Below are positions 1,823 through 59,726 of a DNA stretch of 64,000 bases, piece after piece. Each line of letters begins with the position of its first letter. Position 1 is the stretch's first letter. The position numbers were made by a program, and so were the translations under genes. The DNA comes from an uncultured Chitinophagaceae bacterium (lineage in GTDB: Bacteria; Bacteroidota; Ignavibacteria; UBA10030; UBA8401). The stretch is from positions 13,501 through 77,500 of the forward strand of contig CAZRWF010000003.1 in assembly GCA_964603685.1 (NCBI GenBank), read 5' to 3'. Below the pieces are notes generated by a model. It was given only the letters and a program-made list of their open reading frames with translations. It had not been told where the DNA came from and searched no databases.

Positions 1823-1845
1823 TCTATCCTTCTTCTTTCCCTGAG

Positions 1846-4030: not shown

Positions 4031-4072
4031 GGAGTCAATATTTGTAAAGTAATAAAGAGTGAAATGGCTGAA

Positions 4073-5172: not shown

Positions 5173-5213
5173 CGTTTCCCCCGATTAAACATCATGGCAA
5201 AAATTGTTTCCGT

Positions 5214-6883: not shown

Positions 6884-6884
6884 A

Positions 6885-9436: not shown

Positions 9437-9444
9437 TCTGCTAA

Positions 9445-12002: not shown

Positions 12003-12009
12003 CGGTCCG

Positions 12010-13497: not shown

Positions 13498-13510
13498 TCC
13501 ATCAATACAA

Positions 13511-16182: not shown

Positions 16183-16185
16183 GGT

Positions 16186-17594: not shown

Positions 17595-17651
17595 TACAAT
17601 CGTTGGTAAAAATAAGGTCAGGATAAAAAAAGTCTATTTTTGTTGACTATT

Positions 17652-29088: not shown

Positions 29089-29622
29089 ATGCATCGACAG
29101 CCGTTGTTGAGACAACTCCGGTCGTACGTCCCTGCGGATCCGTACGAACGCTCCCTTCGCGACCGGATCATTTCATTCGTCGAGCAGCATCCCGATTGTT
29201 TCGAACGATCGTTGGCGATCGGCCATATCACCGCATCGGCATTGATCCTTAACCACGACCGAACCAGGACTCTGTTGACCCATCATCACAAGCTGGAAAA
29301 ATGGCTTCAACTGGGAGGGCATGCGGACGGCGATCCCGATCCGCTTGCCGTGGCCTTGCGGGAAGCAGAGGAAGAATCGGGCCTCGCGGATATTCGGCCC
29401 GTTTCTCCGGAGATTTTCGACGTTGATGTTCATCCGATACCCGCACGGAAATCCGAACCGGAGCATGTACATTACGACATTCGATATTTATTCACGGCGG
29501 ATGATACCCTGCCATTGTCGATCACGACGGAGTCAAAAGATCTTGCGTGGATCCCTCTGTCGGAAATTCGAACGTACACCGTCGAAGAATCGATCCTTCG
29601 CATGGTGAGGAAGGTCCGATGA
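29089..29622 (+). CDS. NUDIX hydrolase
   Basis: 177 aa; NUDIX box GGHADGDPDPLAVALREAEEESGL; stop overlaps the histidine-kinase start (ATGA at 29619-29622). Confidence 0.75.
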   Translation: MHRQPLLRQLRSYVPADPYERSLRDRIISFVEQHPDCFERSLAIGHITASALILNHDRTRTLLTHHHKLEKWLQLGGHADGDPDPLAVALREAEEESGLADIRPVSPEIFDVDVHPIPARKSEPEHVHYDIRYLFTADDTLPLSITTESKDLAWIPLSEIRTYTVEESILRMVRKVR

Positions 29623-31130
29623 AATACTCCCGGAACTTGATTGCCGCGGTTCTTCTCATCATCATTCTGATGCCGGCGCTTTTCTTTTCGGTGTATCAGA
29701 TCTCCGCTCTGTCCGAATCCGAAGAACTGATCGGAACGGTCTATACACGGCAGCTGGATGCAATATTGTTCTCCGTGAATCAATATCTCTTCGACGTCAC
29801 CGACAGCTGGGCGACTCGGATCGAAACGGCACTTCCCGGCGGGGATTTTTCGTCCTTCACCAAATCATCTCCCTCCATTATAGCGATCACGGCCGCGGAC
29901 AGCGCCTTCCGTCCGCTGCGGGTTCATTCTGCCGAAGACCATCGCCGCACGAAACAATTGCGCGACCGGTACGGCGAAATGGTTTCGACGCTCGTCCGCT
30001 ATCGCGGCGCGGGATACCGGAAACTGGAGACCGTCGTGCCGGATGATTCGACCATCACGGTGATGTTCGCCACCGGCACACGCCCGCTCCGTATCATCGC
30101 CGTTTCGATCGATCGGCAGCGATTTGTTTCCGACATCATCGCCAAAAAATTGAACGGCTTGGCCGAAAACGACATCCTGCTCGGCGTGGTGAATAACCGG
30201 ACCGATTCCGTTGTCGTGTCGACCGCCCCGGTCTCCGCCGGCCGCCTGTCGCAGCGCCGTCCGTTATGGGTTTTTCCCGACTACTCGCTCGGAATCGGCG
30301 TGCGGGGAGAATCGCTCGAAGAGATCGCCCGCGGACGTTTCACGCGCAATATGATTTTGATTGTGATCGTCGATCTTCTTTTCATCGCGGGGGCCATTGT
30401 GGTCTACCGGACCGTCCGGCGGGAAATGGAATTGATCGCGCTCCGTTCCGATTTCGTTTCGAACGTGTCGCACGAATTACGCACCCCGCTGGCGCTGATC
30501 CGCATGTTCGCCGAAACGCTCGCGATGAACCGCGTGCCGGGCGAAAAAAAGAAAAAAGAATATTACGAGATCATCCTCCGGGAAACGGAACGCCTCACAC
30601 GGCTGATCAACAACATCCTCAACTTCTCCCGGATGGAAAATGCCACGCGGAAATTCCAGTTCCGCCCTGCGGACCTCAACGCCGCCGTGTCGGCCGTACT
30701 GTCCGTCTATCGCCATCAGCTGGACCGGGAGAAATTCGCCGTCACGACGGATCTGGCCGAAAATTTACCGGCTGTGTCGTTCGATGAAGAAGCCATCGCC
30801 GAGGCGTTACACAACCTGATCGACAATGCGATCAAATACAGCGGGGAAAAAAAATACCTCCGGATCCGTACCGAAACGTCCGGCACCGGTGTGTCGATTT
30901 CGGTGCAGGACGATGGGATCGGCATCGCGCCGGAGCACCAATCGCACATTTTCGAAAAATTCTTCCGCGTAACGCACGGACTGGTCCACACCGCCAAAGG
31001 AAGCGGACTCGGATTGTCGATCGTCCGCCATATCGCGGAATCGCACGGCGGATCGGTTTCCGTCGTGAGCACAGTCGGCAAAGGGAGCACCTTCACTATT
31101 CATTTACCACTGACACCGGCGATGCGATGA
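29619..31130 (+). CDS. Sensor histidine kinase (two TM helices, periplasmic sensor, HisKA + HATPase_c)
   Basis: Start at MKYSRNLIAAVLLIIILMPALFF; H-box VSHELRTPLALI; N/G boxes LIDNAIKYS ... GSGLGLSIV. Confidence 0.9.
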   Translation: MKYSRNLIAAVLLIIILMPALFFSVYQISALSESEELIGTVYTRQLDAILFSVNQYLFDVTDSWATRIETALPGGDFSSFTKSSPSIIAITAADSAFRPLRVHSAEDHRRTKQLRDRYGEMVSTLVRYRGAGYRKLETVVPDDSTITVMFATGTRPLRIIAVSIDRQRFVSDIIAKKLNGLAENDILLGVVNNRTDSVVVSTAPVSAGRLSQRRPLWVFPDYSLGIGVRGESLEEIARGRFTRNMILIVIVDLLFIAGAIVVYRTVRREMELIALRSDFVSNVSHELRTPLALIRMFAETLAMNRVPGEKKKKEYYEIILRETERLTRLINNILNFSRMENATRKFQFRPADLNAAVSAVLSVYRHQLDREKFAVTTDLAENLPAVSFDEEAIAEALHNLIDNAIKYSGEKKYLRIRTETSGTGVSISVQDDGIGIAPEHQSHIFEKFFRVTHGLVHTAKGSGLGLSIVRHIAESHGGSVSVVSTVGKGSTFTIHLPLTPAMR

Positions 31131-31158
31131 CATCGTTTGCCGGAACGGGAACAACACT

Positions 31159-31842
31159 ATGGCACGCATACTCGTTATAGAAGACGAACCGGAGATGCAG
31201 CGCGGATTGCGCGATAATCTGGAGTTTGAAGGTTACGACGTAACGGTGATCGGCGAGGGGAAAAAAGGACTCGAAACGATCCTCGAGAGAAAATTCGACG
31301 TGATCGTGCTCGATGTAATGCTGCCGGGGATGTCGGGCTTCAACATCTGCAAAAAAGTCCGCGCGGAAGGGATCGGAACCCCCATCATCATGCTGACGGC
31401 AAAAGGAGAAGAGGTGGACAAAGTGCTCGGGTTGGAGTTCGGCGCCGACGATTATATCACCAAACCGTTTTCCCTTCGAGAATTTCTCGCCCGGATCAAA
31501 GCAGTGCTCCGCCGCTCGCCGGACGACCGCCGGTCCCCGGCGGAACCGGTCGTGCTCGGGCAGTTACGCATCGACTTCTCCGGATATACGGCGGACAAAA
31601 AAGGGAAGCCGGTCTCGATGTCCTCCAAGGAATTCGATATCCTCCGGTACCTGTGGAAACACCAACAAGAAGTGATCAGCCGCGATGATCTGTTGAAGGA
31701 TGTGTGGGGATATGATGAGACGATCACCTCGCGGACCGTCGACAACTTTATTGTGAAACTGCGAAAACTGATCGAAAAAGACCCCGGCAAACCGAAACAT
31801 ATCATCACGATCCACGGAACCGGATACAAGTTGATCCCGTGA
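31159..31842 (+). CDS. OmpR-family response regulator (receiver + winged-helix DNA-binding)
   Basis: 227 aa; ILVIEDEPEM...VIVLDVMLPGMSGF (acceptor Asp present)...LTAKGEE; C-terminal trans_reg_C. Confidence 0.9.
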   Translation: MARILVIEDEPEMQRGLRDNLEFEGYDVTVIGEGKKGLETILERKFDVIVLDVMLPGMSGFNICKKVRAEGIGTPIIMLTAKGEEVDKVLGLEFGADDYITKPFSLREFLARIKAVLRRSPDDRRSPAEPVVLGQLRIDFSGYTADKKGKPVSMSSKEFDILRYLWKHQQEVISRDDLLKDVWGYDETITSRTVDNFIVKLRKLIEKDPGKPKHIITIHGTGYKLIP

Positions 31843-40730: not shown

Positions 40731-41243
40731 TTATCGCTGCAAACGTTTCAGTAACTGAATCTGTCCGGCGTGGTAGATGTCGTGCATGGCGATGCCGGTA
40801 ATGGTTTGCCGATGAGTGAACTTGCTTCCGCGGGGAAACTTCGAAAGATCCGCGTCCGAGAGCTCCAACACCGCAGACACCAACTGATCGTGCATATCGT
40901 CCAGCAACAGAAGATCGCGTTTCCATGCCGCAGCCGAACGATCCTGCGGCCGCGGGAAAAAATTACTTCCTTTTATTGGAAAAGAACCGTGCTGCTCGTT
41001 CGTTATTCGCCGGCGGACGATATATTTCCAGTAGGCGCAATGAACGGTCAATTCCCAGATGTTATGCCGTTGCGGGGCTGGCCGCCAGCAGAGCTGGTCC
41101 ATGGTCAGGCCGCGAACGGAACCCCGCAGGTTTGTTCCGTGCCAGGATTGTTTTCGATAAGATTCCTCGAGCTGTTCGAGGAGCAGTGCTACCGCATTGG
41201 ATTTCGGCATTGTACGTTCCTTCTGTTCAGTGAGACTGTGCAA
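40731..41243 (-). CDS. DinB/YfiT-family (four-helix-bundle metal-binding) protein
   Basis: 170 aa; DinB_2-like His positions incl. C-terminal MHDIYHAGQIQLLKR. Confidence 0.65.
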   Translation of the reverse strand: MHSLTEQKERTMPKSNAVALLLEQLEESYRKQSWHGTNLRGSVRGLTMDQLCWRPAPQRHNIWELTVHCAYWKYIVRRRITNEQHGSFPIKGSNFFPRPQDRSAAAWKRDLLLLDDMHDQLVSAVLELSDADLSKFPRGSKFTHRQTITGIAMHDIYHAGQIQLLKRLQR

Positions 41244-41305: not shown

Positions 41306-42643
41306 CTATTTTTCCGCGCTCTCCTCGCTGTCCGCGTCATGCTGTTGTTTTCGTTTCCAATACCAAAAAGCGGGTAGTCCGGAAAAAATCAACAGCAGCC
41401 CGACCGCGGCATCACCCGGGCTTTCCACAATGGTGTTTATTACAAGTCCGGCCGCGAAGAGTATAAACACCGCCGGCGTGAAAGGATATCCGACGGTGCG
41501 GTACGGACGTTCCATTGCGGGATGTTTTTTTCTCAAGATGATGACTGCCCCACAGGACAGTGCGTAAAATATCCAAATCGCAAAGACGATGTACGTGATC
41601 AGCTGCTCGAACGTGCCGAGCCAGACGAGGACGCATGCCCATACGCATTGTGCAACGAGTGCAATCACGGGTGTGCGTGCCACGGCGTGAATCTGCGCCA
41701 TCGGCGGAAAGAAGAGACGTTCTTTCGCCATCGCATAATATATCCGGGGAGCGGTAAAAACAAAAGCATTGTTCGCACCGAACATGGACACCATGATGGC
41801 AATGACCACTCCCCCGGCGCCGGCAGTCCCCAGCATCACCACCGCCGCATCCGAAGCGACGAGGTCCGACGACCGCATCTGTTCCGGCGTCAGCACCATC
41901 AGGAAAGCAAAGTTCACCGCCAGATATAATACGATCACGATAATCGTGGAAAGAAAGAGTGCCCGCGGGATCGTCTTCTCCGGTTCGGCAATTTCGCCGG
42001 CCACAAAACTGAGGTCGACCCAGCCGTCGTACGCCCATAATATCGCGATCATCGCTAATCCGAACGACGGAACCGTGGCCGACCATTCCCACGTTGAGGA
42101 GACCATTCCGCCGGAGAACCATATTCCTCCCGCGGCGATCGCCAACAGAGCCCCCATTTTGAGAAACGTGAGCACATTTTGAACGCCGATGCCGAATTCT
42201 GTCCCGACGGCATTGATGAACGTCAACACAATGATCGATCCCGTGGCGATCAATTTAATTTCGACATCGGAAAGAGGGAAAAAAAATCCCAGATACTGCG
42301 CCGCGCCGACCGCCACAGCGGCAATGGAGGCGGTCATAATCACCGTGAAGGATGCCCACCCGGAAAGAAATCCCCATACGTCGCCGTACGTTTTTTTCAA
42401 ATAGACATATTGTCCCCCCGCAAAGGGCATCATCGCGCCGAGTTCGGCAAAGGAGAGGGCGCCGCACAGACTGACAATCCCGCCGACAACCCAGGCGATA
42501 AGGATTTCCGCCGGAGAGTGCAGCGAAACCGCCACGGCGGCCGGTACAATAAAAATACCGGAGCCGATCATGCTACCGACGTTCAGCATCGTCGCATCGA
42601 GAAGGGTTAAACGTCGGGGAAGGTCCGGCTGACTGTTGGTCAC
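41306..42643 (-). CDS. APC-superfamily amino-acid/polyamine permease; predicted GTG start overlapping the Rieske gene stop (GTGA)
   Basis: ORF track extends to 42793, but that extension lies inside the Rieske CDS. GTG at 42643..42641 gives (M)TNSQPDLPRRLTLLDATMLNVGSMIGSGIF, a typical APC N-terminus, followed by 12 TM helices. Confidence 0.8.
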   Translation of the reverse strand: MTNSQPDLPRRLTLLDATMLNVGSMIGSGIFIVPAAVAVSLHSPAEILIAWVVGGIVSLCGALSFAELGAMMPFAGGQYVYLKKTYGDVWGFLSGWASFTVIMTASIAAVAVGAAQYLGFFFPLSDVEIKLIATGSIIVLTFINAVGTEFGIGVQNVLTFLKMGALLAIAAGGIWFSGGMVSSTWEWSATVPSFGLAMIAILWAYDGWVDLSFVAGEIAEPEKTIPRALFLSTIIVIVLYLAVNFAFLMVLTPEQMRSSDLVASDAAVVMLGTAGAGGVVIAIMVSMFGANNAFVFTAPRIYYAMAKERLFFPPMAQIHAVARTPVIALVAQCVWACVLVWLGTFEQLITYIVFAIWIFYALSCGAVIILRKKHPAMERPYRTVGYPFTPAVFILFAAGLVINTIVESPGDAAVGLLLIFSGLPAFWYWKRKQQHDADSEESAEK

Positions 42644-43752
42644 AGCGATGGAGAGATTTGGTGATTGTTTACTGCGGCGGCGTATGTACGTTTTAATAAC
42701 GATTGAAAATGATAGACACCCTGTTCCGTTTCGGGTGAAAATCGTCCGGTCGTGTATGCATCGGATTCCAGTCCGCGCTGCACATGTTCGCAAATTTCGA
42801 CGTCTTCCACTTGAACGGTGTGACTGTACTCCACATCCTTCAACGCCCGCTCTTCCGCAGCAGGCGAAGCGACATCGTCATAATAAAAATCGAAAATCAC
42901 GCGGCAGGTATTGTGCGACGTCGGCACCACAATGTTGGTTTGGAGCCGTCCGGGAAGGATATTTAACATGAAGTTCGGGTAGAGGAAGTAATAAAATGCA
43001 TTGCCGGTGCCGTAGACCGTATCGTTTTCTTTCAGCGGACTGTATTGCAGGGAGTACGATTCGGCGGTTTCCGTCACGTATTCCTGCAGATCCAACAGGT
43101 CGCATAACTCGGGGTGGACGTACGGCACATGGTATCCTTCCAGATAATTGTCCACGTACGCCTTCCAGTTGCATCGAACATCGTAGATCTTTCGCCGGGA
43201 GAATTTTTTGGCCGCCAAGGATTCGGGGAATATCCGTTCGGAAATTCCCGCGGCATGGCGTGCAAACGGCGTGTTGTTTTCTTTCAGTGATACGAAGAGG
43301 AGTCCCTCCCACTCATCGAGAGCGATCGGGAACAGACCGAAGTCTTTTTTATCAAAAAGATCAACGCGGTTGAACCGGGGCGTTCCGCGGAGACTTCCGT
43401 CGAGCAGATAGGTCCAGCCGTGGTACTTGCACTGCAATACCGACGACCGGCAATCTTCCGTGGCAAGCGGACCGCCGCGGTGACGGCAGACGTTGTAAAA
43501 CGCGCGAATCTGTCCGTCGTTTCCTTTAACCGCAATGACGGGATTACCGGCAACGGTCGCAATGATCTGGTCACCGGGTTCGGTGAGCCGCGATCGGTGT
43601 CCGATATAATGCCAGTGGGTGGAAAAAAGGTGATGCTTTTCGAAGTGATGGACTGCTTCGTCGTGATAGAATCGGGAAGGAAGGGTTTCCGCACGTTCGA
43701 TCGGATGAATAAACAATTCTTCCGGCGATATGCGAAGCGCGGTGCCGCTCAT
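42640..43752 (-). CDS. Rieske [2Fe-2S] non-heme iron oxygenase alpha subunit (choline monooxygenase / GbcA / CntA-like)
   Basis: 370 aa; Rieske motif CRHRGGPL...CKYHGW; mononuclear Fe motif NYLEGYHVPYVHP; ATGA overlap with the upstream gene. Confidence 0.85.
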   Translation of the reverse strand: MSGTALRISPEELFIHPIERAETLPSRFYHDEAVHHFEKHHLFSTHWHYIGHRSRLTEPGDQIIATVAGNPVIAVKGNDGQIRAFYNVCRHRGGPLATEDCRSSVLQCKYHGWTYLLDGSLRGTPRFNRVDLFDKKDFGLFPIALDEWEGLLFVSLKENNTPFARHAAGISERIFPESLAAKKFSRRKIYDVRCNWKAYVDNYLEGYHVPYVHPELCDLLDLQEYVTETAESYSLQYSPLKENDTVYGTGNAFYYFLYPNFMLNILPGRLQTNIVVPTSHNTCRVIFDFYYDDVASPAAEERALKDVEYSHTVQVEDVEICEHVQRGLESDAYTTGRFSPETEQGVYHFQSLLKRTYAAAVNNHQISPSL

Positions 43753-44951
43753 TTTGCCGCCAATCGGCCTTCCACTGCCGCGACGAGTAATTCCACGTCG
43801 ATCGGCTTGGGAAGCGTCAGATCGAAGCCCATGCGCAGAGCGGCGCGCGCGATTTTATTGTTGTTCACCTCCGCCACAAAAAAGAACGGCACATTCTTCA
43901 ACGACGGATGCTCCTGCACTTTTTTGTAAAAACCGAAGCCGTCCAAAGAGCCGGTGGGGAACCGCGCTTCGCAGATGATCAACTTCGGAAATTGTTTCAG
44001 CATCATCTGCAGCGCATCTTCCGCGCGGGAGGTCGCGATGACCTCGTAATTTCTTTGCTGCAGTGCCCGCATCATATTAACTAATTCCGCTTTGTCCGGT
44101 TCAACGATCAAAATGCGTGCTTTCGGCTGCAGCCCCTTTTTTGCTTCTTGGACGATATGTTCGATCGTCAGGTGTTCGTCCGGCGTGATACCGTACCGCC
44201 GGCGCATCATATCCAACACCTGCCGTTCCATTTCGGTAATGACCCCGTCCTTCCACGCGAGACGCAGCGCATCCACGTACGATTCGATCTTCACCTTTTT
44301 TTCGATGACGGCATGTTCTTCATCCGTGATTCCGAATGTCTCGCGGATCAACCGCAATTCCTGCTCTTCCTCTTCCGTCACTTTCCCGTCGAACCAGGCC
44401 TCTTTCATCGTTTCTTCATACATCAACAGGCTTCCGCGATCCAGTTGCAACGGCGAAGTTTCGGCAACGGCGGTTTTTTTCGGCGCCATCGCATTGGAAA
44501 AGATCTTTTGTCCTTCTTGCTGCTGCAATAACATCAACTGTTCGATCCGGTCGGAGTAGGCTTTCGCAAAATGATTTCCCGGGTCGATCTTATAAACTTC
44601 TGCGATCTTTTTTAACGCTTCATCATATTCGTGCTTGGCGATCAGCTGTTCCGCCGCCGAGAACATCTGTGTGATGAGCTGCATGATTTCTTCTTGACTC
44701 AGCGTCGGTGTTTCTTCTTTGGGCGCATTCTGTTTTTGAATGAGCATCACCCTCTGCTGAAAAGATCGGGCAAGGGCGTGTTTCGGATCAATTGTCAGCG
44801 CCTTTTTGATCTCCGCCAGTGCGCCGTCGTAATTTTTTGCCCGGGCCATCTCGTCCGCAAAGCGCAGATGTTTTGAGATGATCTCTTTTTGCTGATCGGC
44901 AGGCGAAGCGGTTGGTTTATTTCCAAACATATTGTTCTTTTCCCCAATCAA
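43749..44951 (-). CDS. TPR-like + tandem TerB-like repeat protein with C-terminal atypical receiver domain (Glu at the acceptor position)
   Basis: 400 aa; two TerB/DjlA-N-like repeats (EAWFDGKVTEEEEQELRLIRETFGITDEEH / LAWKDGVITEMERQVLDMMRRRYGITPDEH); C-terminal CheY-like fold ILIVEPD...KLIICEARFPTGSLDGF...LPKP with E/C where the phospho-Asp is expected. Confidence 0.55.
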   Translation of the reverse strand: MIGEKNNMFGNKPTASPADQQKEIISKHLRFADEMARAKNYDGALAEIKKALTIDPKHALARSFQQRVMLIQKQNAPKEETPTLSQEEIMQLITQMFSAAEQLIAKHEYDEALKKIAEVYKIDPGNHFAKAYSDRIEQLMLLQQQEGQKIFSNAMAPKKTAVAETSPLQLDRGSLLMYEETMKEAWFDGKVTEEEEQELRLIRETFGITDEEHAVIEKKVKIESYVDALRLAWKDGVITEMERQVLDMMRRRYGITPDEHLTIEHIVQEAKKGLQPKARILIVEPDKAELVNMMRALQQRNYEVIATSRAEDALQMMLKQFPKLIICEARFPTGSLDGFGFYKKVQEHPSLKNVPFFFVAEVNNNKIARAALRMGFDLTLPKPIDVELLVAAVEGRLAAK

Positions 44952-45002: not shown

Positions 45003-45033
45003 AAAAATAACAACGCCGCATTTCTGCGGCGTT
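45003..45033 (-). terminator. Rho-independent terminator after the OMP gene 45061..46509
   Basis: Perfect AACGCCGCA-GAAA-TGCGGCGTT hairpin followed by GTTATTTTTGC on the minus strand. Confidence 0.7.
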
Positions 45034-45060: not shown

Positions 45061-46509
45061 TCAAAAGCGGTAACTGACGGTCACATTCACGGCAACGGTG
45101 GAAACGGATTCTTCCATACGGGAGGCATTCGGCACCGCAGGATCGGTATAGTGATTGCGGAATGTCCGGAACGATCCGAACGCCGCGGCACCATCCAAGA
45201 CGACGTTGCGCTGCAGGAATAATCCGAATCCGCCGGTGATCGTCGTGTTATCAAAGGACGCCGGGTCGTTTTTGTACGGAGACGGACTTACGGAGTATCC
45301 GCCGCGAAGCTTTAGATCGGTGGAGGGTACGTCGAATTCTGCACCGATCCGGTAGCCGGTTGTTGCGCGGAAATTGGATTGCATCTGAATATTATTCTTT
45401 TCCAGTACCGGTTCGTCGGTGAATTCTGCCTGCGTCCAATCGCTGTACTCCACATCGGCCGAAACAAGAAATTCCTGTAAGAGATACAACGAAACACCGG
45501 CGCCGAGAGTCCACGGGGATGAAATACCGTATTCATTGGTCGCTGTCGCACTGTGTTTTCGCGCCGGATTGTTTCCGGACCAGGTCCCCGTCGCATCAAA
45601 AATGCTTTCTCCTTCATCCGTATAATTTTCGCGAACCTTTAAAGTGATCGGTCCTTTCGCCACTGCCCCGATGCGGAACCGTTCCGATCGGTACATCATT
45701 CCGAGATGCATGGCACTGCCGCTGATTTCGCCGGAGAGAAAGTTATCGACATAAAACCGGTGGTAACGAACAAAGGCGGAATCGGGTGAAAGACCGGCCG
45801 ATGCATTCGCATAAACATTGTTAACATCTTCTTCCAGGAAATTCCTCGTATAATCGTACATGCCGGAGAAGACATACAGCGAAACACCGAAGGAGATATT
45901 TTCTTCAATATCAATCGCCATGCTGATGGCCCATTGTCCGAGATTCCCCCCTTCTTGTGTCCTGCCCCGCTGTTGAACGTTCCCCGTGATGCTGGAGGCC
46001 GTTCCATTCGTGTCCGTTAAGTATGTTTGATACGCCAAATTAAAATCGGACCGGCCCTGATTCAAATAACTCCGGACAATGGAACTTTGCGTGTTAAATC
46101 CGCTGAACGTGGAGGCGGCCGAAAATTCGGAGATGCGATTGTATCCAAACGCAAAGACCAAACTTCCTCGATCGGTCGGAAACGGAAAAACAAATCCGAT
46201 ATTGTCGAGCGCGGTGGCGGAGGCGCTGGCGTTTTGTGTGGCGGAAATAAACGTGGCATCGTTCGAAGCGGAATAGTTCGAAATTCCTCCCATCACTTCC
46301 AGTCGCCGCAGTTGCGCCAATCCGGCCGGATTGCTGATCGATCCGCTGTAATCATCGGAGATGCCGAAATAGGCGTTTCCCATTCCCAACGAACGGGCGC
46401 CGGCGCCGTTACCGAGGCGCGTATATCGAATAATATCTTCGGAAAATTGCGCCGACAGCATTGCGGTACCGGCGGCGGTGAACAGTACAGCGGCAAAAAA
46501 TCTTTTCAT
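45061..46509 (-). CDS. Outer-membrane beta-barrel protein (FadL/OmpP1-like or PorV-like; family uncertain)
   Basis: 482 aa; signal peptide MKRFFAAVLFTAAGTAMLSAQ; alternating amphipathic beta-strand pattern; C-terminal ...VSYRF aromatic terminus typical of OM barrels. Confidence 0.55.
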   Translation of the reverse strand: MKRFFAAVLFTAAGTAMLSAQFSEDIIRYTRLGNGAGARSLGMGNAYFGISDDYSGSISNPAGLAQLRRLEVMGGISNYSASNDATFISATQNASASATALDNIGFVFPFPTDRGSLVFAFGYNRISEFSAASTFSGFNTQSSIVRSYLNQGRSDFNLAYQTYLTDTNGTASSITGNVQQRGRTQEGGNLGQWAISMAIDIEENISFGVSLYVFSGMYDYTRNFLEEDVNNVYANASAGLSPDSAFVRYHRFYVDNFLSGEISGSAMHLGMMYRSERFRIGAVAKGPITLKVRENYTDEGESIFDATGTWSGNNPARKHSATATNEYGISSPWTLGAGVSLYLLQEFLVSADVEYSDWTQAEFTDEPVLEKNNIQMQSNFRATTGYRIGAEFDVPSTDLKLRGGYSVSPSPYKNDPASFDNTTITGGFGLFLQRNVVLDGAAAFGSFRTFRNHYTDPAVPNASRMEESVSTVAVNVTVSYRF

Positions 46510-46523
46510 AATCGATCCGTAGT

Positions 46524-47204
46524 TTATCGCGGTCTGCTCCGGTCATCGCGTGTTCCTCCGTCCGTTCTGGTGCGCGTGGAAGATTCGTTCGATGAACCGG
46601 AACTATTCGAATTGCGGTCTGTGGTTGCTGCCGGCGTGGCGGTTGCCGGCGGTGCTGTGACCGTTGTTGTCGGCGGAGTCGACGCGGGCGGCGCGGAGGT
46701 TGAACCGCCGACGGGCGCCTGCGGTTGCGTATATGTGCCTGTGGATCTGCGGTCGTCGCGTGTCACTCCATCCGTGCGCGGACGGTCTGTTTCTCCGGCG
46801 GTCGAAGTAGGGGTTGACACAGCAGTCGAAACGGTTGGCGACCACCATGGATTCATCCGGCCCGGCGTGGAAGGCCAGTATGGATTGGGTTCCCGAACAT
46901 ATATTGAGCTCGTTTCCTCGCGCCATTGATGCGCTGCCAGGAGCGATCCGTTGTGCACCGTCCGGATTCCGTACAATCCCAGCTCTTCCGCTCTCTCATC
47001 CAATTCCACCACGCTGTGACACGACACGCACGATTGCTGGAAGTTCATCACCGAAGAATGATCGGTCCGGTGTTGCGACACGGTCGTGGCGGCACGTCGT
47101 GTTTGAATAAAATCGTGCGGACTCATCACTTTTGTATAACAGCCCGGCATCAATATTCCGGCGAACAGTACCGCGGATAATAATATTTTATTGGTTCCGT
47201 TCAC
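46524..47204 (-). CDS. Lipoprotein with a single CxxCH motif and a Pro/Thr-rich disordered tail carrying RTDGxTRD repeats
   Basis: ORF track (to 47369) overlaps the upstream gene; GTG 47204 lies 1 nt after the upstream stop and gives (M)NGTNKILLSAVLFAGILMPGC, a lipoprotein signal. Contains QQSCVSCHS; tail TPTSTAGETDRPRTDGVTRDD...TRTRTDGGTRDDRSRPR. Confidence 0.45.
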   Translation of the reverse strand: MNGTNKILLSAVLFAGILMPGCYTKVMSPHDFIQTRRAATTVSQHRTDHSSVMNFQQSCVSCHSVVELDERAEELGLYGIRTVHNGSLLAAHQWREETSSIYVREPNPYWPSTPGRMNPWWSPTVSTAVSTPTSTAGETDRPRTDGVTRDDRRSTGTYTQPQAPVGGSTSAPPASTPPTTTVTAPPATATPAATTDRNSNSSGSSNESSTRTRTDGGTRDDRSRPR

Positions 47205-47205
47205 G

Positions 47206-48252
47206 TCACTCTCCCCTTCTGCCGGAGTTGCCGGAGGTCGATCCGGAATTGCCGCTGCTTCGCGGAGCGGATTGAGCCGGCGGCGATTGTTGTTGCGGCG
47301 GCGGCGATACGTGTTGCTGTCTCGGTTGACGGGGACGTTCTTCCGATTTCGGCTCCTCTTTGGGAACATTTTTTTTCACCGGCGGAGTGAATCGCGGCTC
47401 TTCCCGTTTCGGACGTTCCGGGGCGGTTTCATCTTGTCGTTCTGCTTTTTTGGGGGGAACATATCGCGGCTGATCGCGCACCGGTTGATTATTTACCGGA
47501 CGTTCTGCCGGAAGAATTCGACGTGTCTCTCCCGGTGTTGCCGGCGGCGGTGCCGGTCGTTCTTCACCCTCCGCGACTCTGGTCGTTTTGGTTTCACTCA
47601 CTTTTTCCCACCACGGTTTTTCCGTATCGCGTCGCCCCTCCGGCGGTTTCGGCCCCTCCGGTACCCATGTGCCCGTTCTGCCGACAGTGATCGGACCGGT
47701 GGACGGAACGGAGGGGGGATTGCCTGCGGTTGGCCGGTCGCGGCCGGGAATCGGGTCTCGGGTCGGCCCATCCGTTCGCGGTCGATCGGTCGTTACCGGC
47801 CTGTCATTATAGACCGGTGACGGGTAATAGACCGGGTAATACACAACAGGAGGATAGTAGACCGGATAAGGATAGGGGTACGGATACCACGGATCCCAAT
47901 ATGGCGGCGGAGCGTAACACCAACCGTACGAGGAGTAGAATGGATCATAATACCATGACGGTCGGTGGTACATTCCCCAATAATAGTTGTCAAAATATGA
48001 ATGATAGTACGCGCTGATCCAGGAAGTATAGGTCGGATAATAATAGTTGAAGGAGACACGCAGCCGCGAACGGCGGTAGTCATCATCAAGATAATAATGA
48101 TTGTTGATCGTCGTATTTCCCGCTTCGGTGGATGTATCCGATGCGTACGATTGGTCTCGGTCTTCTGTTTCTCTTGTCGCCAATTCCGTATAACATCCGG
48201 AAAAAACGAATACACAAACAGCGGCCGTCATCATCATCAGTCCCGGTTTCAT
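47206..48252 (-). CDS. Lipoprotein with an extreme Tyr/Pro/Trp-rich low-complexity segment and Pro/Lys/Glu-rich tail
   Basis: 348 aa; lipoprotein signal MKPGLMMMTAAVCVFVFSGC; ~90-aa segment YYYPTYTSWISAYYHSYFDNYYWGMYHRPSWYYDPFYSSYGWCYAPPPYWDPWYPYPYPYPVYYPPVVYYPVYYPSPVY; then DRPRTDGPTRD and a long proline-rich, highly charged (Lys/Glu/Arg) tail. Confidence 0.55.
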   Translation of the reverse strand: MKPGLMMMTAAVCVFVFSGCYTELATRETEDRDQSYASDTSTEAGNTTINNHYYLDDDYRRSRLRVSFNYYYPTYTSWISAYYHSYFDNYYWGMYHRPSWYYDPFYSSYGWCYAPPPYWDPWYPYPYPYPVYYPPVVYYPVYYPSPVYNDRPVTTDRPRTDGPTRDPIPGRDRPTAGNPPSVPSTGPITVGRTGTWVPEGPKPPEGRRDTEKPWWEKVSETKTTRVAEGEERPAPPPATPGETRRILPAERPVNNQPVRDQPRYVPPKKAERQDETAPERPKREEPRFTPPVKKNVPKEEPKSEERPRQPRQQHVSPPPQQQSPPAQSAPRSSGNSGSTSGNSGRRGE

Positions 48253-52602: not shown

Positions 52603-53418
52603 TTATTCGGCGATGGTGATTTCGGGAATATCTCCCAGCATTCCGTAATAGAACGCCATCCGGAAAAATTCCTCCAACGCGGTTTTGGTAAGATCGTCGA
52701 ATCCGTACGAAAATCGGGAAAGATAATTCTGCAGCAGATCCGCCGAATGCCCGGTTTCCGCCGCCAGTTCGTTCACGACCGATTCCAGAGTGCTACGGCC
52801 GGCGTTTTGTGATGCAATAAGCAGCGTGCTGAGCGCGGGATCGAATGTTTCCGAGCGGCCGACGCAGAGGGTGTGCACAAACGGCAGTTCCGTCATATCG
52901 GTCCACTCATCCACCATGTCGATGAACGGCAGATCGCTGTCGATGGTGAGAAGCGCATCGCCGGTGACGAGGGCGGAATCCGCTTTTACCAGCATTTCGT
53001 CGACCGAGCCGAGAGCCGGAACGATCGCCGGTTCGGAATCATATTTTTCGCCGAGGACAATGCGGGAAAGGACCACATCCGTGGTCATCACCGCTCCCAC
53101 CGCCATCGTGGTAATCTTCTGCAGATTGCGACGGAGATACAAACGGGATGAATTGCTCTGTCCGGCGGACGAGACTCCCAATTCCGGATAGAGAAATAAT
53201 CCCGAACTGTTTTGCGCGTACTCCACCGGGGGGATGTAGATGACATCCCGTTCTTTGCTCATCAACCCGTCCATCTGCGCGGCAGGCGTATCAAACAAAA
53301 GTTCCCCCGGGAATCCGGAGGAACGATGAAGCGTACGATACAACGGCCGGGTGTAGAGATCGCGGAGCGCGCCCACTCGCCGGCCGTTTGCCTGGCCGGT
53401 GCGCACGGCGGAACTCAC
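52603..53418 (-). CDS. mqnA: MqnA/MqnD-family protein (futalosine-pathway menaquinone biosynthesis; probably chorismate dehydratase MqnA)
   Basis: 271 aa; periplasmic-binding-protein-like fold; N-terminal [14 protein letters not shown] resembles the MqnA Y-x-N-x-x-P-L motif; ATGA overlap with the rplS stop. Confidence 0.45.
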
Positions 53419-53762
53419 TGATTCGCGCCGGTCTTTTGACGGATCTGTTTCGCCGCCAATCCGCGCAAGTAGTACAGTTTCGCGCGCCGGGCGTGTCCTT
53501 CCTTCACCAATTCAATCTTGGCGATACGCGGTGAGTGCAGCGGGAAAATTCTTTCCACTCCGACACCGTCCGACACTTTGCGGACGGTGAACGTGGCACC
53601 CATGCCTTCGCCACGGCGTCCGATCACGACACCTTGATATTGCTGGATACGTTCTTTATCCCCTTCCACCACGCGGACGTGCACATTCACCGAATCGCCC
53701 ACTTTGAATTCCGGAAGGTCGGCCTTCACATAAGCCGCTTCCACTAATTTGATTTTGTCCAT
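53415..53762 (-). CDS. rplS: 50S ribosomal protein L19
   Basis: 115 aa; [34 protein letters not shown]. Confidence 0.95.
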
Positions 53763-53879
53763 ACTTACCTCGTTGTTGTGTCCCGTTCTTTCGGGACGAT
53801 GATTGAATACTGTATTTTATTTTCACACTCTGGAACGGACCGTTGTATTTCGTTTCGCTTTGGGTCCGTATTTTTTGTC

Positions 53880-54554
53880 CTACGGTAACAAATCTTTTCT
53901 TCGCTCCTTCGTCTTTGCCGCTCGCTGCTCTTCTCTCCATTGTGCCACTTCTTTGTGGTTTCCGCCGAGCAGCACTTCCGGCACTTTCATTCCCCGAAAT
54001 TCCGGGGGGCGCGTGTAACTCGGCGCGTCGAGTTGTCCGTCCTGAAACGAGTCGGACAACGCCGATTCACCGTCACCGATCGCTCCGGGTATCAGCCGGA
54101 TAACCGCGTCGGCGATCACCATCGCCGCCAACTCCCCGCCGGTCAACACATAATCGCCGATAGAAATCTCTCTGGTCACCAGCACATCCCGCACCCGCTG
54201 ATCGATTCCTTTGTAATGTCCGCAGAGGATGATCAGATTGTTCTTCAGCGAAAAATCGTTCGCCATTTTCTGATCAAACCGTTCTCCGTCCGCCGTCACA
54301 TAGATCACATCGTCGTAGTCCCGTTCGGACCGAAGTTTCTCCACACATTCGAAGATCGGTTCCGGCTTCAGGATCATCCCCGATCCGCCGCCGTACGGCG
54401 GAAGGTCGATGATGCGGTGTTTATCGTGGGCGTACGACCGGAGGTCGTGCACCGCGATTTCCGCCAATCCTTTTTCCTGCGCCCGCTTGAGAATACTTTC
54501 CGACAGAGGGCTTTTCAACAGCTGCGGCACTGCGGAAACGATATCGATCCTCAT
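53880..54554 (-). CDS. trmD: tRNA (guanine37-N1)-methyltransferase TrmD
   Basis: 224 aa; [13 protein letters not shown]...SPOUT knot motifs. Confidence 0.95.
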
Positions 54555-54572
54555 ACGTCCGTCACCATCGTT

Positions 54573-55112
54573 TTATAACATTTCGCCGTCGAACAATCCT
54601 TCCGGAGGGCGGACGACGATCCGCTTGTTCTGCACATCCACATTCATCACAAATTCCCGGACGGCGGGGAGCAGCACCTGACCGCGCCGCGTTTTGACCG
54701 TGTAGACCATTTGTGCCGGATACGCATCCACCGAAACGACCGATCCGTACATTTTTCCCGCCTCGTTCACCACCGAACAGCCGACAAGATCGTCGATGAA
54801 AAATTTTTCGTCCGGCAGTTGTTTCCGGCGGATCTCTTCCACGAACAGATACTGTCCGCGGAGCAGTTCGGCATCGGTCCGGTCATCCACGCCCGCCAGT
54901 TTCAGATAAATCCCGTCCCCGCGTGTTTTCACCGACTCCACCGTGCACGGCACCACGTCGGCATCGGACGCACCGAGCAGGAATGTTCCTGCCGCCTGAA
55001 GTTCTTCGGCGCTCCGGGCGAACGATTCTACTTTCACTTCGCCGCGGATGCCGAACACTTTCCGGACCTGCGCCACCGCACGAAGTTCCCCGGTGATCTG
55101 TTTAGTCTTCAA
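54573..55112 (-). CDS. rimM: 16S rRNA processing protein RimM
   Basis: 179 aa; RimM N-terminal + PRC barrel; operon position. Confidence 0.85.
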   Translation of the reverse strand: MKTKQITGELRAVAQVRKVFGIRGEVKVESFARSAEELQAAGTFLLGASDADVVPCTVESVKTRGDGIYLKLAGVDDRTDAELLRGQYLFVEEIRRKQLPDEKFFIDDLVGCSVVNEAGKMYGSVVSVDAYPAQMVYTVKTRRGQVLLPAVREFVMNVDVQNKRIVVRPPEGLFDGEML

Positions 55113-55332
55113 CTTCGAGTATCGCCCTTTTACCAGTTTTCGCCGCCACCGCGCTCAGCAGAACGCGCATGGATTGCGCCGTGCGCCCTTGTTTCCCGAT
55201 GATCTTTCCGATATCGGGTTGCGCCACTTTAATCCGGAAGACGATTTTTTCATCCTTCTCCTCTTCCGAAATGACGACCGACGCGGGATCGTCGACGAGA
55301 TGCTTCGCAACATATTCGAGGAATTCACGCAT
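55102..55332 (-). CDS. KH-domain RNA-binding protein (YlqC/UPF0109 family)
   Basis: 76 aa; KH signature IGKIIGKQGRTAQSMR; conserved position between rpsP and rimM. Confidence 0.7.
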   Translation of the reverse strand: MREFLEYVAKHLVDDPASVVISEEEKDEKIVFRIKVAQPDIGKIIGKQGRTAQSMRVLLSAVAAKTGKRAILEVED

Positions 55333-55388
55333 ATCTGCCTCCTGGTGGTGGTGATACGACGGCGTTCTCTACGATGATGCCGAAACGA

Positions 55389-55814
55389 TTACGCTTGCGC
55401 GGGAGCTTCCGCCGCGGGAGCCGACGGAACAGCCGCTTTTTTCTTTGCCGCTTTGCGGCGTGCTTTTTTCGCCAATTCTTTTTCGCGTTTTAAACCCTGC
55501 GCGGCGGACCATTTTTCGTATTCCGCGGCGATGGTCGCTTCATCTTTCCCTTTTTTCTTCAGGGTCCATTTCAGCATAATCCCTTTACGGCTGAGAAGGT
55601 TCTTCACCGTATCGGTCGGTGTCGCGCCGACGCCGAGCCAGTACATCACCCGGGTCTCTTTCAGGTCGATCGAAATCGGATCGGTGCTCGGATTGTATTG
55701 TCCCAGTTTTTCCAGGAACCGTCCGTCCCGTTTGTAGCGGGAATCGGCCGCAACGATACGGTAAATCGGCTGCTTCTTTTTGCCGCCGCGTTGTAATCTG
55801 ATTTTTACTGCCAC
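55389..55814 (-). CDS. rpsP: 30S ribosomal protein S16 with Lys/Ala-rich C-terminal extension
   Basis: 141 aa; [42 protein letters not shown]; tail ...[26 protein letters not shown]. Confidence 0.9.
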
Positions 55815-55872
55815 TGTGGTGCTCCTTTAACTGTACTGCTGATTGATATGTTGTTATTTAATTTTTTTCGAA

Positions 55873-57213
55873 TCATCGTCCGAACCGCTGGCCCATCATT
55901 TTCGCGATACTTTTTCCTTTGGAAAAATTCCGCATCATCTTCTGCATCTCGGTAAACTGGTTCAGCAGTTTGTTCACTTCTTGGATCGTCGTGCCGCTCC
56001 CGGCGGCGATCCGTTTCCGGCGCGATCCGTTGATAATGCCCGGATTGCTCCGCTCTTCTTTCGTCATGGAGAGAATGATCGCTTCCACGTACTTCAACTC
56101 TTTGTCGTCTACTTCGTTCAGGTTCCCCAGTTTCGCGGCGCCCGGAATCATGGACATCACCTGCGACAACGGCCCCATCTTTTTGATCTGCTGCAGCTGT
56201 TCGTAAAAATCCTGCAGCGTGAACTGCGCCTTGACGATCTTTTCCTGTAACTTCTCCGCCTGCTTCTGGTCAAAGGTCTGCTGCGCCTTTTCCACGAAGG
56301 AGACAATGTCTCCCATACCGAGAATGCGCGATGCCATCCGGTCCGGATGGAACTGCTCCAGCGCATCCATCTTTTCACCGACGCCGACGAATTTGATCGG
56401 TTTGCCGACCACGCTGCGGATCGACAACGCTGCGCCGCCGCGGGTATCGCCGTCCAGTTTTGTCAGCACGACGCCGTCGTAATCCAGCCGGTCGTGGAAC
56501 GCTTTCGCCGTGTTCACGGCATCCTGGCCGATCATCGCGTCGACGACAAAAAGGATCTCGTGCGGCTTCACGGCGGATTTAATGTCCGCCACTTCCTGCA
56601 TCATCGTTTCGTCGATCGCCAAACGGCCGGCGGTATCGATGATCACGATGTCACGGGCATTCTCCTTCGCATGTGCGATCGAACGCTTGGCGATGGCGAG
56701 GGCCGATTCGTTTTTCAGATTGAAAACCGGAACGCCGATCTGCTCGCCGAGCGAAAGCAGCTGATCGACCGCCGCAGGGCGGTAGACGTCCGCCGCCACG
56801 AGAAGCGGCTGCTTCCCTTTTGCTTTTAAATAGTTCGCGAGTTTTCCGCTGAAGGTCGTTTTACCGGACCCCTGCAGACCCGCCACCAAAATTACGGACG
56901 GGATGTCGGAGGAAATGTTGATCTCCGCTTTCGCCGTTCCCATGAGCTCCACGAGTTCGTCGTGGATGATCTTGATGATAAGCTGACCCGGCGTGACGCT
57001 CGCCACCACTTCCTGGCCGAGCGTTTTGATCTTGACGTTCTCGATGAACGTTTTGACCACGTTCACGTTCACGTCGGCATCGAGCAGAACGCGGCGTACT
57101 TCGCTCAGCGCCTCATTCGTGTTCTCATCCGAGATCCGATGCTGCCCACGGAGTTTCCGTAACGCTCCGTCTAATTTTTCCGTCAGTGTTTCGAACATAC
57201 TGTTGTGAACCAC
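55873..57213 (-). CDS. ffh: Signal recognition particle protein Ffh
   Basis: 446 aa; N/G domain GLQGSGKTT, DTAGR; Met-rich M domain. Confidence 0.95.
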   Translation of the reverse strand: MVHNSMFETLTEKLDGALRKLRGQHRISDENTNEALSEVRRVLLDADVNVNVVKTFIENVKIKTLGQEVVASVTPGQLIIKIIHDELVELMGTAKAEINISSDIPSVILVAGLQGSGKTTFSGKLANYLKAKGKQPLLVAADVYRPAAVDQLLSLGEQIGVPVFNLKNESALAIAKRSIAHAKENARDIVIIDTAGRLAIDETMMQEVADIKSAVKPHEILFVVDAMIGQDAVNTAKAFHDRLDYDGVVLTKLDGDTRGGAALSIRSVVGKPIKFVGVGEKMDALEQFHPDRMASRILGMGDIVSFVEKAQQTFDQKQAEKLQEKIVKAQFTLQDFYEQLQQIKKMGPLSQVMSMIPGAAKLGNLNEVDDKELKYVEAIILSMTKEERSNPGIINGSRRKRIAAGSGTTIQEVNKLLNQFTEMQKMMRNFSKGKSIAKMMGQRFGR

Positions 57214-57275
57214 GAAGACACCAAAAACACAAAATTAAAAATATTTCGTGTCCTTTGTGTTTTGGCGGTTATTCC

Positions 57276-58157
57276 TTAACTCGCTTTTTTCAACGCTTCG
57301 GCGCCGCCGACGATTTCGAGCAATTCTTTCGTGATGGCGGCCTGGCGCGCCTTGTTATAGTTCAACTGCAATACTTTGATCAAATCGCGCGCATTGGTCG
57401 ATGCGTTTTCCATCGCCGACATCCGCGCTCCTTGTTCCGCCGCGTTCGAATCGAGCAGCACGCGCCAGAACTGGAAGTTGAGATGTTTCGGCACCAGGGC
57501 GGAAACGATCTCGTCGCTGGCCGGTTCATAGATATAATCCGTACCGTGCGCCGGTCCGCCCGACGTCTGCGGCACCACCGGAAGGAACTGTGCGATCGTT
57601 AATTTCTGCTGGACGGCGTTTTTAAATTCGTTGGAGATAATCTCCACCGTGTCGTATTCCCCCTTCAAAAAACCGTCGGTCACTTCCGCGACGATCATCT
57701 TTGCGGTAGCGAAGTTCATCTGATTGTACACGCCGACATGTTTGCCGATCACTTCATAATTCCGCTTGCTGAAGAAATCGTATCCTTTTTTCCCGACGCA
57801 GATCAATTTCACTTTGCCGGCCTTATTCATCTCGGCGTAGTTCGTTTTGATGTGATTCACCGCCGCTTTGATGATGTTGCTGTTGAACGCGCCGCAGAGT
57901 CCGCGGTCCGCCGTCACCACCACGATCGCCACCGCTTTCACTTCGCGCCGTTCAAACTGCGGATATTTCGTCACGTCCACCTGTCCGGAAAGATGGGAAA
58001 GGAGCTCCTGCATCTTTCGTGCATAGGGGCGCGCCGCCACGATCGCGTCGGTCGCACGGCGAAGTTTCGCCGCCGCCACCATTTTCATCGCTTTGGTGAT
58101 CTTCTGTGTACTTTTGACGCCGCTGATGCGCTGGCGTATTTCTCGTAAGGTGGCCAT
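57276..58157 (-). CDS. atpG: ATP synthase F1 gamma subunit
   Basis: 293 aa; MATLREIRQRISGVKSTQKITKAMKMVAAAKL. Confidence 0.95.
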   Translation of the reverse strand: MATLREIRQRISGVKSTQKITKAMKMVAAAKLRRATDAIVAARPYARKMQELLSHLSGQVDVTKYPQFERREVKAVAIVVVTADRGLCGAFNSNIIKAAVNHIKTNYAEMNKAGKVKLICVGKKGYDFFSKRNYEVIGKHVGVYNQMNFATAKMIVAEVTDGFLKGEYDTVEIISNEFKNAVQQKLTIAQFLPVVPQTSGGPAHGTDYIYEPASDEIVSALVPKHLNFQFWRVLLDSNAAEQGARMSAMENASTNARDLIKVLQLNYNKARQAAITKELLEIVGGAEALKKAS

Positions 58158-58163
58158 GAAAAA

Positions 58164-59711: not shown

Positions 59712-59726
59712 GTCCTTTGTTCCTTC

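Follow-up and report, generated by a model that had tools for sequence, protein, structure and literature searches.

Organization of the locus

We examined a group of four genes on the minus strand of a 64-kb stretch of contig CAZRWF010000003.1, from an uncultured Ignavibacteria-like bacterium (this whole stretch is termed the window below, and numbers such as L010 denote loci from its relatives). In order of transcription the genes encode a receiver-domain protein, a Rieske-type oxygenase, an amino-acid permease and a DinB_2 protein. Their overlap and adjacency in a single genome had hinted at a regulator-enzyme system, and it is the comparison of 24 orthologous and 80 related loci, described in the next section, that separates a backbone gene from a portable oxygenase-permease pair (hereafter the cassette). 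The first three open reading frames (ORFs; 44951..43749, 43752..42640 and 42643..41306, the last from GTG), along with the two 4-bp overlaps that join them, were found where the original prediction had placed them. Pfam profiles recognized a Response_reg domain (E 3e-13) and one TPR_2 repeat in the first product, Rieske and Ring_hydroxyl_A domains in the second, AA_permease_2 (3e-57) in the third and DinB_2 in the product of the gene downstream of the permease (Table 1).

The start of the receiver gene is placed at ATG 44930 and not at TTG 44951, because an MFGNK or MFGSK N-terminus is conserved in nearly every homologue of the family; among 77 homologues nearly all are 388-399 aa long and every one begins with MFG or MFS. 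The DinB protein is likewise 159 aa long in relatives, and its start is therefore set at ATG 41210 and not at TTG 41243, which makes the spacer between the permease and DinB genes 95 nt long and not 62. It was the shorter figure that had been given at first, with overlaps counted at all three junctions; the two overlaps listed in Table 1 hold, and the third junction is this spacer. The spacer folds no better than shuffled versions of itself (z -0.3), and we claim no terminator or attenuator within it; in L012, L013 and L014 the DinB gene overlaps the permease gene. Conservation of the other junctions is similarly uneven: the ATGA overlap between the receiver and Rieske genes recurs in L013, in L014 and in a gene remnant in L010 (see below), with a 73-bp spacer occupying this position in L012, and the 4-bp overlap between the Rieske and permease genes is present in L012 and L013 too.

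On the upstream side, a terminator-like hairpin sits 3' of a gene for a FadL/TolX-like porin (46509..45061) and likely represents the 5' limit of the transcription unit. The genes thus share a strand, are joined by two 4-bp overlaps and a 95-nt unstructured spacer, and have a hairpin upstream of them, as an operon would; they are most simply read as one unit running from the receiver gene through the Rieske and permease genes to the DinB gene, and we infer that the four are likely to be co-expressed in this genome. The overlaps had further been taken to argue for obligate co-expression. This argument does not carry, since 4-bp overlaps are frequent in the window, with at least three further junctions of this kind (15709-15712, 17115-17118 and 53415-53418), and hence they reflect compact packing with no obligate functional tie.

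Table 1. Coordinates of genes, junctions, protein domains and the upstream hairpin in the window
Feature	Position	Strand	Basis or detail
Terminator-like hairpin	45012..45033	-	9-bp stem (6 G-C), then GTTATTTTTG; terminator role presumed
Receiver gene, 393-aa orphan pseudo-receiver protein	43749..44930	-	ORF open to TTG 44951; conserved start ATG 44930
N-terminal helical region, residues 10-147, two TPR-like three-helix units	44490..44903	-	Pfam and AF2 model
Five-helix domain, residues 166-264, two W-x-D-G-x-[IV]-[TS]-x-x-E repeats	44139..44435	-	TerB/ENT/Tic110-like; AF2 model
Pseudo-receiver (REC) domain, residues 272-386	43773..44117	-	Pfam, HMM alignment, Foldseek
ATGA start/stop overlap, receiver/Rieske	43749..43752	-	reads ...gcaaaATGAgc...
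Rieske gene, 370-aa group Va-like (CntA/CMO-like) non-heme-iron monooxygenase	42640..43752	-	Pfam, CntA match, residue mapping
GTGA start/stop overlap, Rieske/permease	42640..42643	-	reads ...gctGTGAcc...
Permease gene, 445-aa LAT/SLC7-type exchanger, APC superfamily, GTG start	41306..42643	-	Pfam, NCBIfam, BasC match
DinB_2 gene, 159 aa, last gene of the unit	40731..41210	-	Pfam DinB_2 7e-16; 159-aa form kept in relatives

A backbone receiver gene and a portable cassette

To place the four genes in context we computed the gene content of 24 orthologous receiver loci, the window included, in all of which the receiver gene lies downstream of a porin gene. What follows the receiver gene varies greatly. 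Rieske, permease and DinB genes follow it in five loci (the window, L012, L013, L014 and L032); DinB comes directly after it in ten; one other gene, for an amidohydrolase or a metallophosphoesterase, precedes DinB in three; five loci show other content; and in the last, L010, a Rieske remnant is followed by a toxin-antitoxin pair. The receiver gene is therefore retained without the cassette in 18 of the 24 loci, and its length and conservation are about unchanged there. Judged from this record of presence and absence, the site after the receiver behaves like a small variable island among conserved genes.

The remnant in L010 (9188-9421, and at the same coordinates in L011) is an ORF of 77 codons that overlaps the receiver stop codon by ATGA. 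Over 26 residues from its start it agrees with the Rieske N-terminus at 69% identity (tblastn E 4e-7), beyond which it diverges, and a PIN_2 toxin gene comes next. As the remaining downstream synteny (DinB, GHL10) is gone in this locus, a rearrangement breakpoint is placed inside the former Rieske gene, and the remnant is, to judge from its sequence, a cassette loss caught in the act. In a search of 13 cassette-less loci for remnants of the Rieske or permease genes it stood alone, the other matches being at chance level.

The converse comparison took the Rieske homologues as anchors, in 80 metagenome loci. A permease orthologue (51-61% identity) lies immediately downstream of the Rieske gene in 16 of these, with varied flanks, which bears out the earlier view that the oxygenase and the permease belong together. 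Neither a receiver nor a DinB homologue occurs in the flanks of any of the 80. When the neighbors were clustered, the permease alone emerged as a recurrent partner of the Rieske gene; the other recurrent genes (RuvB, AroE-like, PstB-like and so on) reflect lineage synteny. Given that the pair recurs in 16 unrelated contexts and that the receiver persists without the cassette, the receiver is not a regulator dedicated to the cassette. In the window, L012, L013 and L014 the genes on either side of the cassette include none from mobile elements.

The history of the association was traced with neighbor-joining (NJ) trees, the Rieske tree being bootstrapped 200 times. The five receiver-linked Rieske proteins are monophyletic in 200/200 replicates, and cassette carriers fall at no fewer than three well-supported places on the receiver tree, in which clades at 99-100% also hold non-carriers. 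Identity among the Rieske proteins is 67-69% between clades and 70-74% within clade A, and that among the receiver proteins is 68-74% within clade A and 47% between clades. The grouping of the receiver-linked Rieskes in one clade fits one gain with repeated loss, and the simplest history would be a single capture of an already existing cassette before the deepest split of the lineage, followed by six or more losses.

The genes that occupy the variable site in other relatives, in a stretch of 1-6 kb after the receiver gene, are of several kinds. L022 and L023 encode an Amidohydro_3 protein of 552-556 aa, L029 and L035 a 384-aa membrane Metallophos protein, L031 a CaCA-type exchanger, and L024 PBP1C together with an alpha-2-macroglobulin-like giant protein.

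The receiver protein: a derived pseudo-receiver with helical partners

In the AlphaFold2 (AF2) model of the full receiver protein, with a mean predicted local distance difference test score (pLDDT) of 80, the N-terminal region is made of helices at residues 10-30, 34-47 and 52-68 and at residues 79-98, 102-115 and 120-147. The Pfam TPR_2 match covers residues 34-58 of this region (28.1 bits against a cut-off of 27). A disordered linker (residues 148-165) precedes the five-helix middle domain, and the C-terminus is formed by the receiver (REC) domain, which scores 50.2 bits against a Pfam Response_reg cut-off of 30.2. Residues 272-386 of the model adopt the (beta-alpha)5 fold, with Foldseek template-modeling scores (TM-scores) of 0.89 to 3t6k and 0.85 to FrzS.

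A hidden Markov model (HMM) alignment to solved receivers, the best match being 3t6k, places Glu277 (codon 44100-44102) at the DD1 position, Pro278 at the metal-binding DD2 position and Glu321 (codon 43968-43970, in the peptide KLIICEARFP encoded at 43956-43982) opposite the phospho-acceptor. The conserved Thr position is occupied by Ala353, and Lys375-Pro376 is retained. The alignment thus confirms what had been proposed from the translation, namely a Glu opposite the phosphorylated Asp, a Glu as the first acidic residue and an intact Lys-Pro motif. The domain would accordingly be a phosphorylation-incompetent pseudo-receiver, in which the loss extends further than had been noted, to Pro at DD2 and to the replacement of Thr by Ala. 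In place of the acidic DD1/DD2 pair and the Asp acceptor of canonical receivers it has Glu277-Pro278 and Glu321, and it matches the published definition of pseudo-receivers (PMC12632262), as a receiver that is recognized by profiles and in which the phosphotransfer residues DD2, D and T are replaced.

Residue counts over 74 orthologues show that this state is general in the family. Glu occupies the acceptor position in 71 and Asp in the other 3; a single orthologue has an acidic DD2; the Thr/Ser position holds Thr or Ser in 56, Ala in 10 (the window protein among them) and Val in 7; and Lys-Pro is present in all 73 orthologues that span it. Neither the acceptor residue nor the Thr-to-Ala change is associated with presence of the cassette, Glu being found in carriers and non-carriers alike. 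More distant homologues of the same length and domain order (L047-L062, 35-39% identity) display the canonical VDD[DE], Asp, Ser and Lys-Pro residues, and an intermediate group of paralogues combines D-x-D with Glu. The occurrence of canonical residues in homologues of the same architecture implies that the Glu state arose from a normal receiver and that it is old and under selection. We therefore regard the domain as a derived case of a known and common type of pseudo-receiver, predicted not to be phosphorylated in the usual way. Paralogues of the receiver family at 41-44% identity are found elsewhere in the same metagenome-assembled genomes (MAGs; L038-L046), and L036 (8001-10816) and L037 (8001-10654) each have a second, more divergent copy in tandem, which shares 33-34% identity with the window protein.

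According to a 2025 review (PMC12632262), about 6% of receiver domains are pseudo-receivers, of which about 80% have a non-acidic DD2; Glu replaces Asp in plant pseudo-response regulators (PRRs) and in fungal Rim15p, and the mechanisms of bacterial pseudo-receivers are termed a mystery. The residues of the window domain follow the pattern reported there for pseudo-receivers of bacteria. Like FrzS, ChxR, the plant PRRs and Rim15p, the window domain combines the (beta-alpha)5 fold with a non-acidic DD2, a replaced acceptor Asp (here by Glu) and a retained Lys, and like known pseudo-receivers it is an orphan without a kinase encoded next to it. It differs from these four in its partners, which are two TPR-like units and a WxDG helical-repeat domain, in the confinement of its family to Ignavibacteria-like MAGs, and in the existence of canonical Asp-type relatives with the same architecture. 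A single architecture with both Asp-type and Glu-type receivers offers a natural series in which to study what Glu does in place of Asp in a pseudo-receiver.

The affinities of the middle domain are less clear. The TerB profile (PF05099) matches it in the full-length window protein with E 0.044 and 14.5 bits, and in the isolated domain with 22.5 bits against a cut-off of 24.4. Across 21 members of the family TerB is matched in 21/21 (best E 2e-6), ENT in 21/21 and Tic110 in 20/21; the three profiles score about alike, and the window copy stays under the curated cut-offs. The isolated domain is modeled with a pLDDT of 90, and a Foldseek search with it returned nothing better than E = 1, the top match by E-value being 2h5n (E 1.0, TM-score 0.32), which we take to be a TerB-like structure. 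Local superposition works best on ENT domains, with TM-scores of 0.55-0.69 across about 65 columns. In a profile search no PDB sequence was matched below E 0.28, and Foldseek with the full-length model retrieved receiver matches only. The TerB label originally attached to this domain is thus neither confirmed nor rejected. Neither a DNA-binding nor an enzymatic output domain was recovered in the receiver protein by Pfam, AF2 or Foldseek. This lack of an output domain, the 18 cassette-less loci and the occurrence of the cassette elsewhere without a receiver together speak against the proposal that the receiver is the unusual regulator of an oxidation module.

The Rieske oxygenase

Among solved structures the Rieske protein is matched over its full length by CntA (PDB 6y8j; E 5e-51, 177 bits, 32% identity). 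Stc2 (3vca, 4qup) reaches 107 bits and is aligned only to residues 24-224, in the N-terminal half, to which the matches of aromatic ring-hydroxylating enzymes are likewise confined. Functional positions of CntA were taken from the literature (PMC7948474 and PMC10952381) and carried over by HMMER alignment, and conservation was counted over 72 members of the family. The computed residue correspondence shows that the window protein keeps the Cys and His ligands of the Rieske center (the CXH...CXXH motif), His208, His213, Asp323 and the bridging Glu205, as well as Tyr203, Tyr225, Phe258, Asn270 and Tyr315 (all in CntA numbering). Cys89, His91, Cys108, His111, His208, His213 and Asp317 (which corresponds to CntA Asp323) are invariant in the 72 members, as are Glu205, Tyr225 and Asn270. 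Position 203 is Tyr or Phe in 72/72, and at positions 258 and 315, which vary slightly more, most residues are aromatic. Four residues are changed relative to CntA: Tyr295 is Phe (Phe287), Phe319 is Val (Val or Ile in the family), Cys206 is Gly and Cys209 is Val. These changes hold across the 72 relatives, and the Cys pair of group V is absent in all of them.

An aromatic residue at position 203, which makes a cation-pi contact to trimethylammonium, has been described as separating the quaternary-amine oxygenases of group Va from the rest, with Asn being found there in group Vb (PMC7948474). We assign the Rieske protein to a distinct, uncharacterised subfamily resembling group Va, that is, CntA and choline monooxygenase (CMO), its placement within group V being judged from relative scores against PDB entries (177 bits for CntA versus 107 for Stc2). 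Like the members of that group, which include plant CMO and OxyBAC, it consists of one alpha-type subunit about 370 aa long, and as in the case of CntA its gene is paired with a transporter gene, here for a LAT/SLC7 exchanger and there for a BCCT carrier. It is unlike CntA proper in its sequence (the 32% identity noted above), in having Gly and Val in place of the Cys206-X-X-Cys209 pair, in lacking the Tyr295 contact, and in having no adjoining gene for a CntB-type reductase. With GbcA/BmoA and Stc2 of group Vb it shares the Rieske domain and the overall fold family, whereas it differs from them in falling far below the cut-off of the GbcA model, in being covered by Stc2 over its N-terminal half, and in having Tyr where group Vb has Asn203. 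The CntA/CMO-like part of the earlier assignment is thus upheld by the full-length match, Tyr203 and Glu205. GbcA, which had been named alongside, is rejected: the protein attains 147.3 bits with the NF058607 model, whose cut-off is 670, and the residue at 203 is Tyr and not Asn.

The absence of a reductase partner, remarked on earlier for this locus, extends to its relatives, as no reductase-like gene was found in the 64-kb window and no Fer2- or FNR-type ORF in the 80 Rieske-related loci, in which the sole iron-sulfur motif match is a 4Fe-4S-type ORF in L123 and L124. There exists in Bacteroidota and Ignavibacteriota a large, strongly conserved and uncharacterised subfamily of CMO/CntA-like Rieske proteins (52-74% identity to the window protein) with invariant iron ligands and without a dedicated reductase in the loci surveyed, for which, in one sub-clade, the LAT-type exchanger is the only constant partner. 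Our literature search returned nothing specific on a module of a Rieske oxygenase with a LAT permease or on the function of bacterial CMO. The subfamily is a defined target for substrate discovery among the quaternary amines.

Some minor associations were seen near other Rieske homologues. Stand-alone GBBH-like_N (PF06155) ORFs of 113-117 aa lie near more distant homologues from one sub-lineage (L107, L112, L115, L117 and L128). A RidA/L-PSP gene is present near the Rieske-permease pair in L085 (9526-9930) and L088, and beside a permease-less Rieske gene in L118. These neighbors are suggestive of trimethylammonium or imine chemistry; they come from few related contigs and are not used as evidence here.

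The permease

The best NCBIfam match of the permease is TIGR00911 (L-type amino acid transporter), at 259 bits against a trusted cut-off of 702. Of the solved structures BasC (6f2g) is nearest, with E 1e-72 across residues 16-433; xCT, y+LAT and LAT1/2 rank after it. GSGIF in transmembrane helix 1 (TM1) and AYDGW in TM6 align to BasC. In the structures of LAT1 and BasC, G-S-G of TM1 and (A/F)-Y-x-G-W of TM6 are the substrate-site motifs. We therefore classify the permease, from its sequence, as a LAT/SLC7-type amino-acid exchanger and not as a recognized quaternary-amine carrier, so that of the earlier description as an amino-acid or quaternary-amine permease only the former part is sustained. 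It resembles BasC and the SLC7 light chains (LAT1/2, xCT, y+LAT and b0,+AT) in conserving both motifs, and is unlike them in being genetically paired with an oxygenase and in lying under the trusted cut-off of TIGR00911.

Interpretation and alternative explanations

Each of the components belongs to a known kind, namely a pseudo-receiver, a group V Rieske oxygenase, a LAT exchanger and a DinB_2 protein, and the operon is ordinary packaging with no new regulator-enzyme system. The explanation that we favor, as a probable one held with some reserve, is that the interval is one co-directional unit composed of two evolutionarily, and probably functionally, independent units. One would be a backbone of the lineage, comprising the pseudo-receiver and DinB_2 genes, which are adjacent in most relatives just downstream of the FadL-like porin gene; the receiver protein is most likely a phosphorylation-independent scaffold for protein interactions and not a transcription factor. 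The other would be the portable cassette of a group Va Rieske monooxygenase and a LAT/SLC7-type exchanger, which would have entered the spacer between the receiver and DinB genes once and later been lost many times. The mechanism that we propose for the cassette is that the exchanger imports an amino-acid-like cation, plausibly with a trimethylammonium group, and that the oxygenase would hydroxylate it next to a nitrogen, probably a quaternary one, leading to C-N cleavage or demethylation. The electrons, we infer, would be supplied by a general ferredoxin or reductase encoded elsewhere, and the product may exit via the same exchanger. Electron supply from a general ferredoxin is established for plant CMO. 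An osmolyte or a quaternary amine, which the original prediction had put forward, is only a plausible substrate.

Several points weigh against this explanation of two independent units. All trees were built by NJ, and those of the Rieske and receiver proteins place L013 slightly differently, which makes recombinational spread possible. The four genes are tightly packed with 4-bp overlaps in lineages down to 47% receiver identity, and it is possible that co-expression with the receiver protein is of some functional benefit. The case for a quaternary amine is made from one signature residue and a 32%-identical template, in which the contacts Tyr295 and Phe319 differ (Phe and Val in the window protein) and of which the Cys pair is missing. 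LAT exchangers are also not known to transport quaternary amines.

These last points could be taken to mean that no quaternary amine is involved at all, the exchanger carrying a neutral, aromatic or cationic alpha-amino acid and the Rieske protein hydroxylating or desaturating it, for catabolism or to yield an exported tailoring product. The permease is a canonical LAT/SLC7 exchanger in which the alpha-amino-acid-binding GSG of TM1 and AYDGW of TM6 align to BasC, the Tyr295 and Phe319 contacts of CntA are altered (to Phe and to Val/Ile, respectively) with the Cys pair absent from all 72 relatives, and the RidA-family genes near the cassette in L085 and L088, as well as the one beside the permease-less Rieske in L118, would suit such a pathway. 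It is nevertheless an unlikely account, as the aromatic residue at 203 (Tyr or Phe) is invariant and is the group Va marker (PMC7948474), the bridging residue is Glu as in CntA, and among solved structures CntA, not an oxygenase of aromatic substrates, gives the best full-length match. With regard to history, the spacer between the receiver and DinB genes might instead be an insertion hot spot that received the cassette by several lateral transfers, or by homologous recombination via the conserved flanks. Elsewhere the spacer holds an amidohydrolase, a metallophosphoesterase, a CaCA exchanger, PBP1C or a toxin-antitoxin pair; L013 lies outside the group of the window, L014, L012 and L032 in the Rieske tree and inside clade A in the receiver tree; and Rieske identity between clades (67-69%) is near that within them (70-74%), whereas receiver identity falls from 68-74% to 47%. 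Against this stand the single, fully supported clade of receiver-linked Rieskes (200/200), the L010 remnant, which indicates at least one loss in place, and the lack of mobile-element genes by the cassette in the window and L012-L014, and repeated entry seems to us rather unlikely.

That the Glu-bearing receiver is a constitutively 'on', dedicated regulator, with translational coupling fixing the stoichiometry of regulator, oxygenase and permease, is quite improbable. This idea draws on the ATGA and GTGA overlaps in the window and the receiver/Rieske overlap in L013, L014 and the L010 remnant, on an arrangement that predates the split of clades A and B at 47% receiver identity, and on the strong conservation of Glu at the acceptor position (71/74). 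It has to contend with the retention of the receiver in 18 of 24 loci without the cassette, with the 16 other contexts in which the cassette is found and in whose flanks there is no receiver homologue, with the want of a DNA-binding or catalytic output domain, with the 73-bp spacer between the receiver and Rieske genes in clade B (L012), and with the commonness of 4-bp overlaps in the window. We would give still less credence to a bolder proposal that combines all the components: a new group V reaction type, reductase-less and ferredoxin-fed, acting on an alpha-amino acid with a distal trimethylammonium (e.g. N-epsilon-trimethyllysine or a related betaine), with the exchanger as a substrate/product antiporter and the Glu-locked scaffold co-translated so as to organize or gate the pair at the membrane.

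Other features of the window

An Rfam scan of the entire window gave zero matches, and the DinB_2 protein found no match among PDB sequences. The porin-like protein encoded at 45061-46509 (-) has no Pfam match at E <= 0.001, and most of its orthologues carry precomputed Toluene_X (FadL-type) matches; its N-terminus resembles a signal peptide and its last residues are ...SYRF. Directly upstream of its gene, at 46524-48252 (-), lie two ORFs in overlapping frames (281 and 348 aa) whose products are rich in Pro, Thr, Tyr and Arg. In relatives three unannotated genes (about 254, 335 and 219 aa), one of them with a faint YjbH match, are situated between cysS and the porin gene. The ORFs at 46524-48252 and the porin may form an outer-membrane system.

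A canonical two-component pair is encoded at 29547-31842 (+), about 12 kb from the pseudo-receiver gene, the gene for a HisKA/HATPase_c kinase (527 aa) preceding that for an OmpR-type response regulator (227 aa); the pair has no evident link to the pseudo-receiver. The window as a whole is core chromosome. It contains a complete dcw cell-division/peptidoglycan cluster, genes for ATP synthase subunits, ffh-rpsP-rimM-trmD-rplS, a recN-like gene, cysS and ribosomal genes, the core genes occupying 580-17600 (-) and 53400-60300 (-); their names were assigned from N-terminal sequences and synteny with annotated relatives, a part of them being checked by Pfam.

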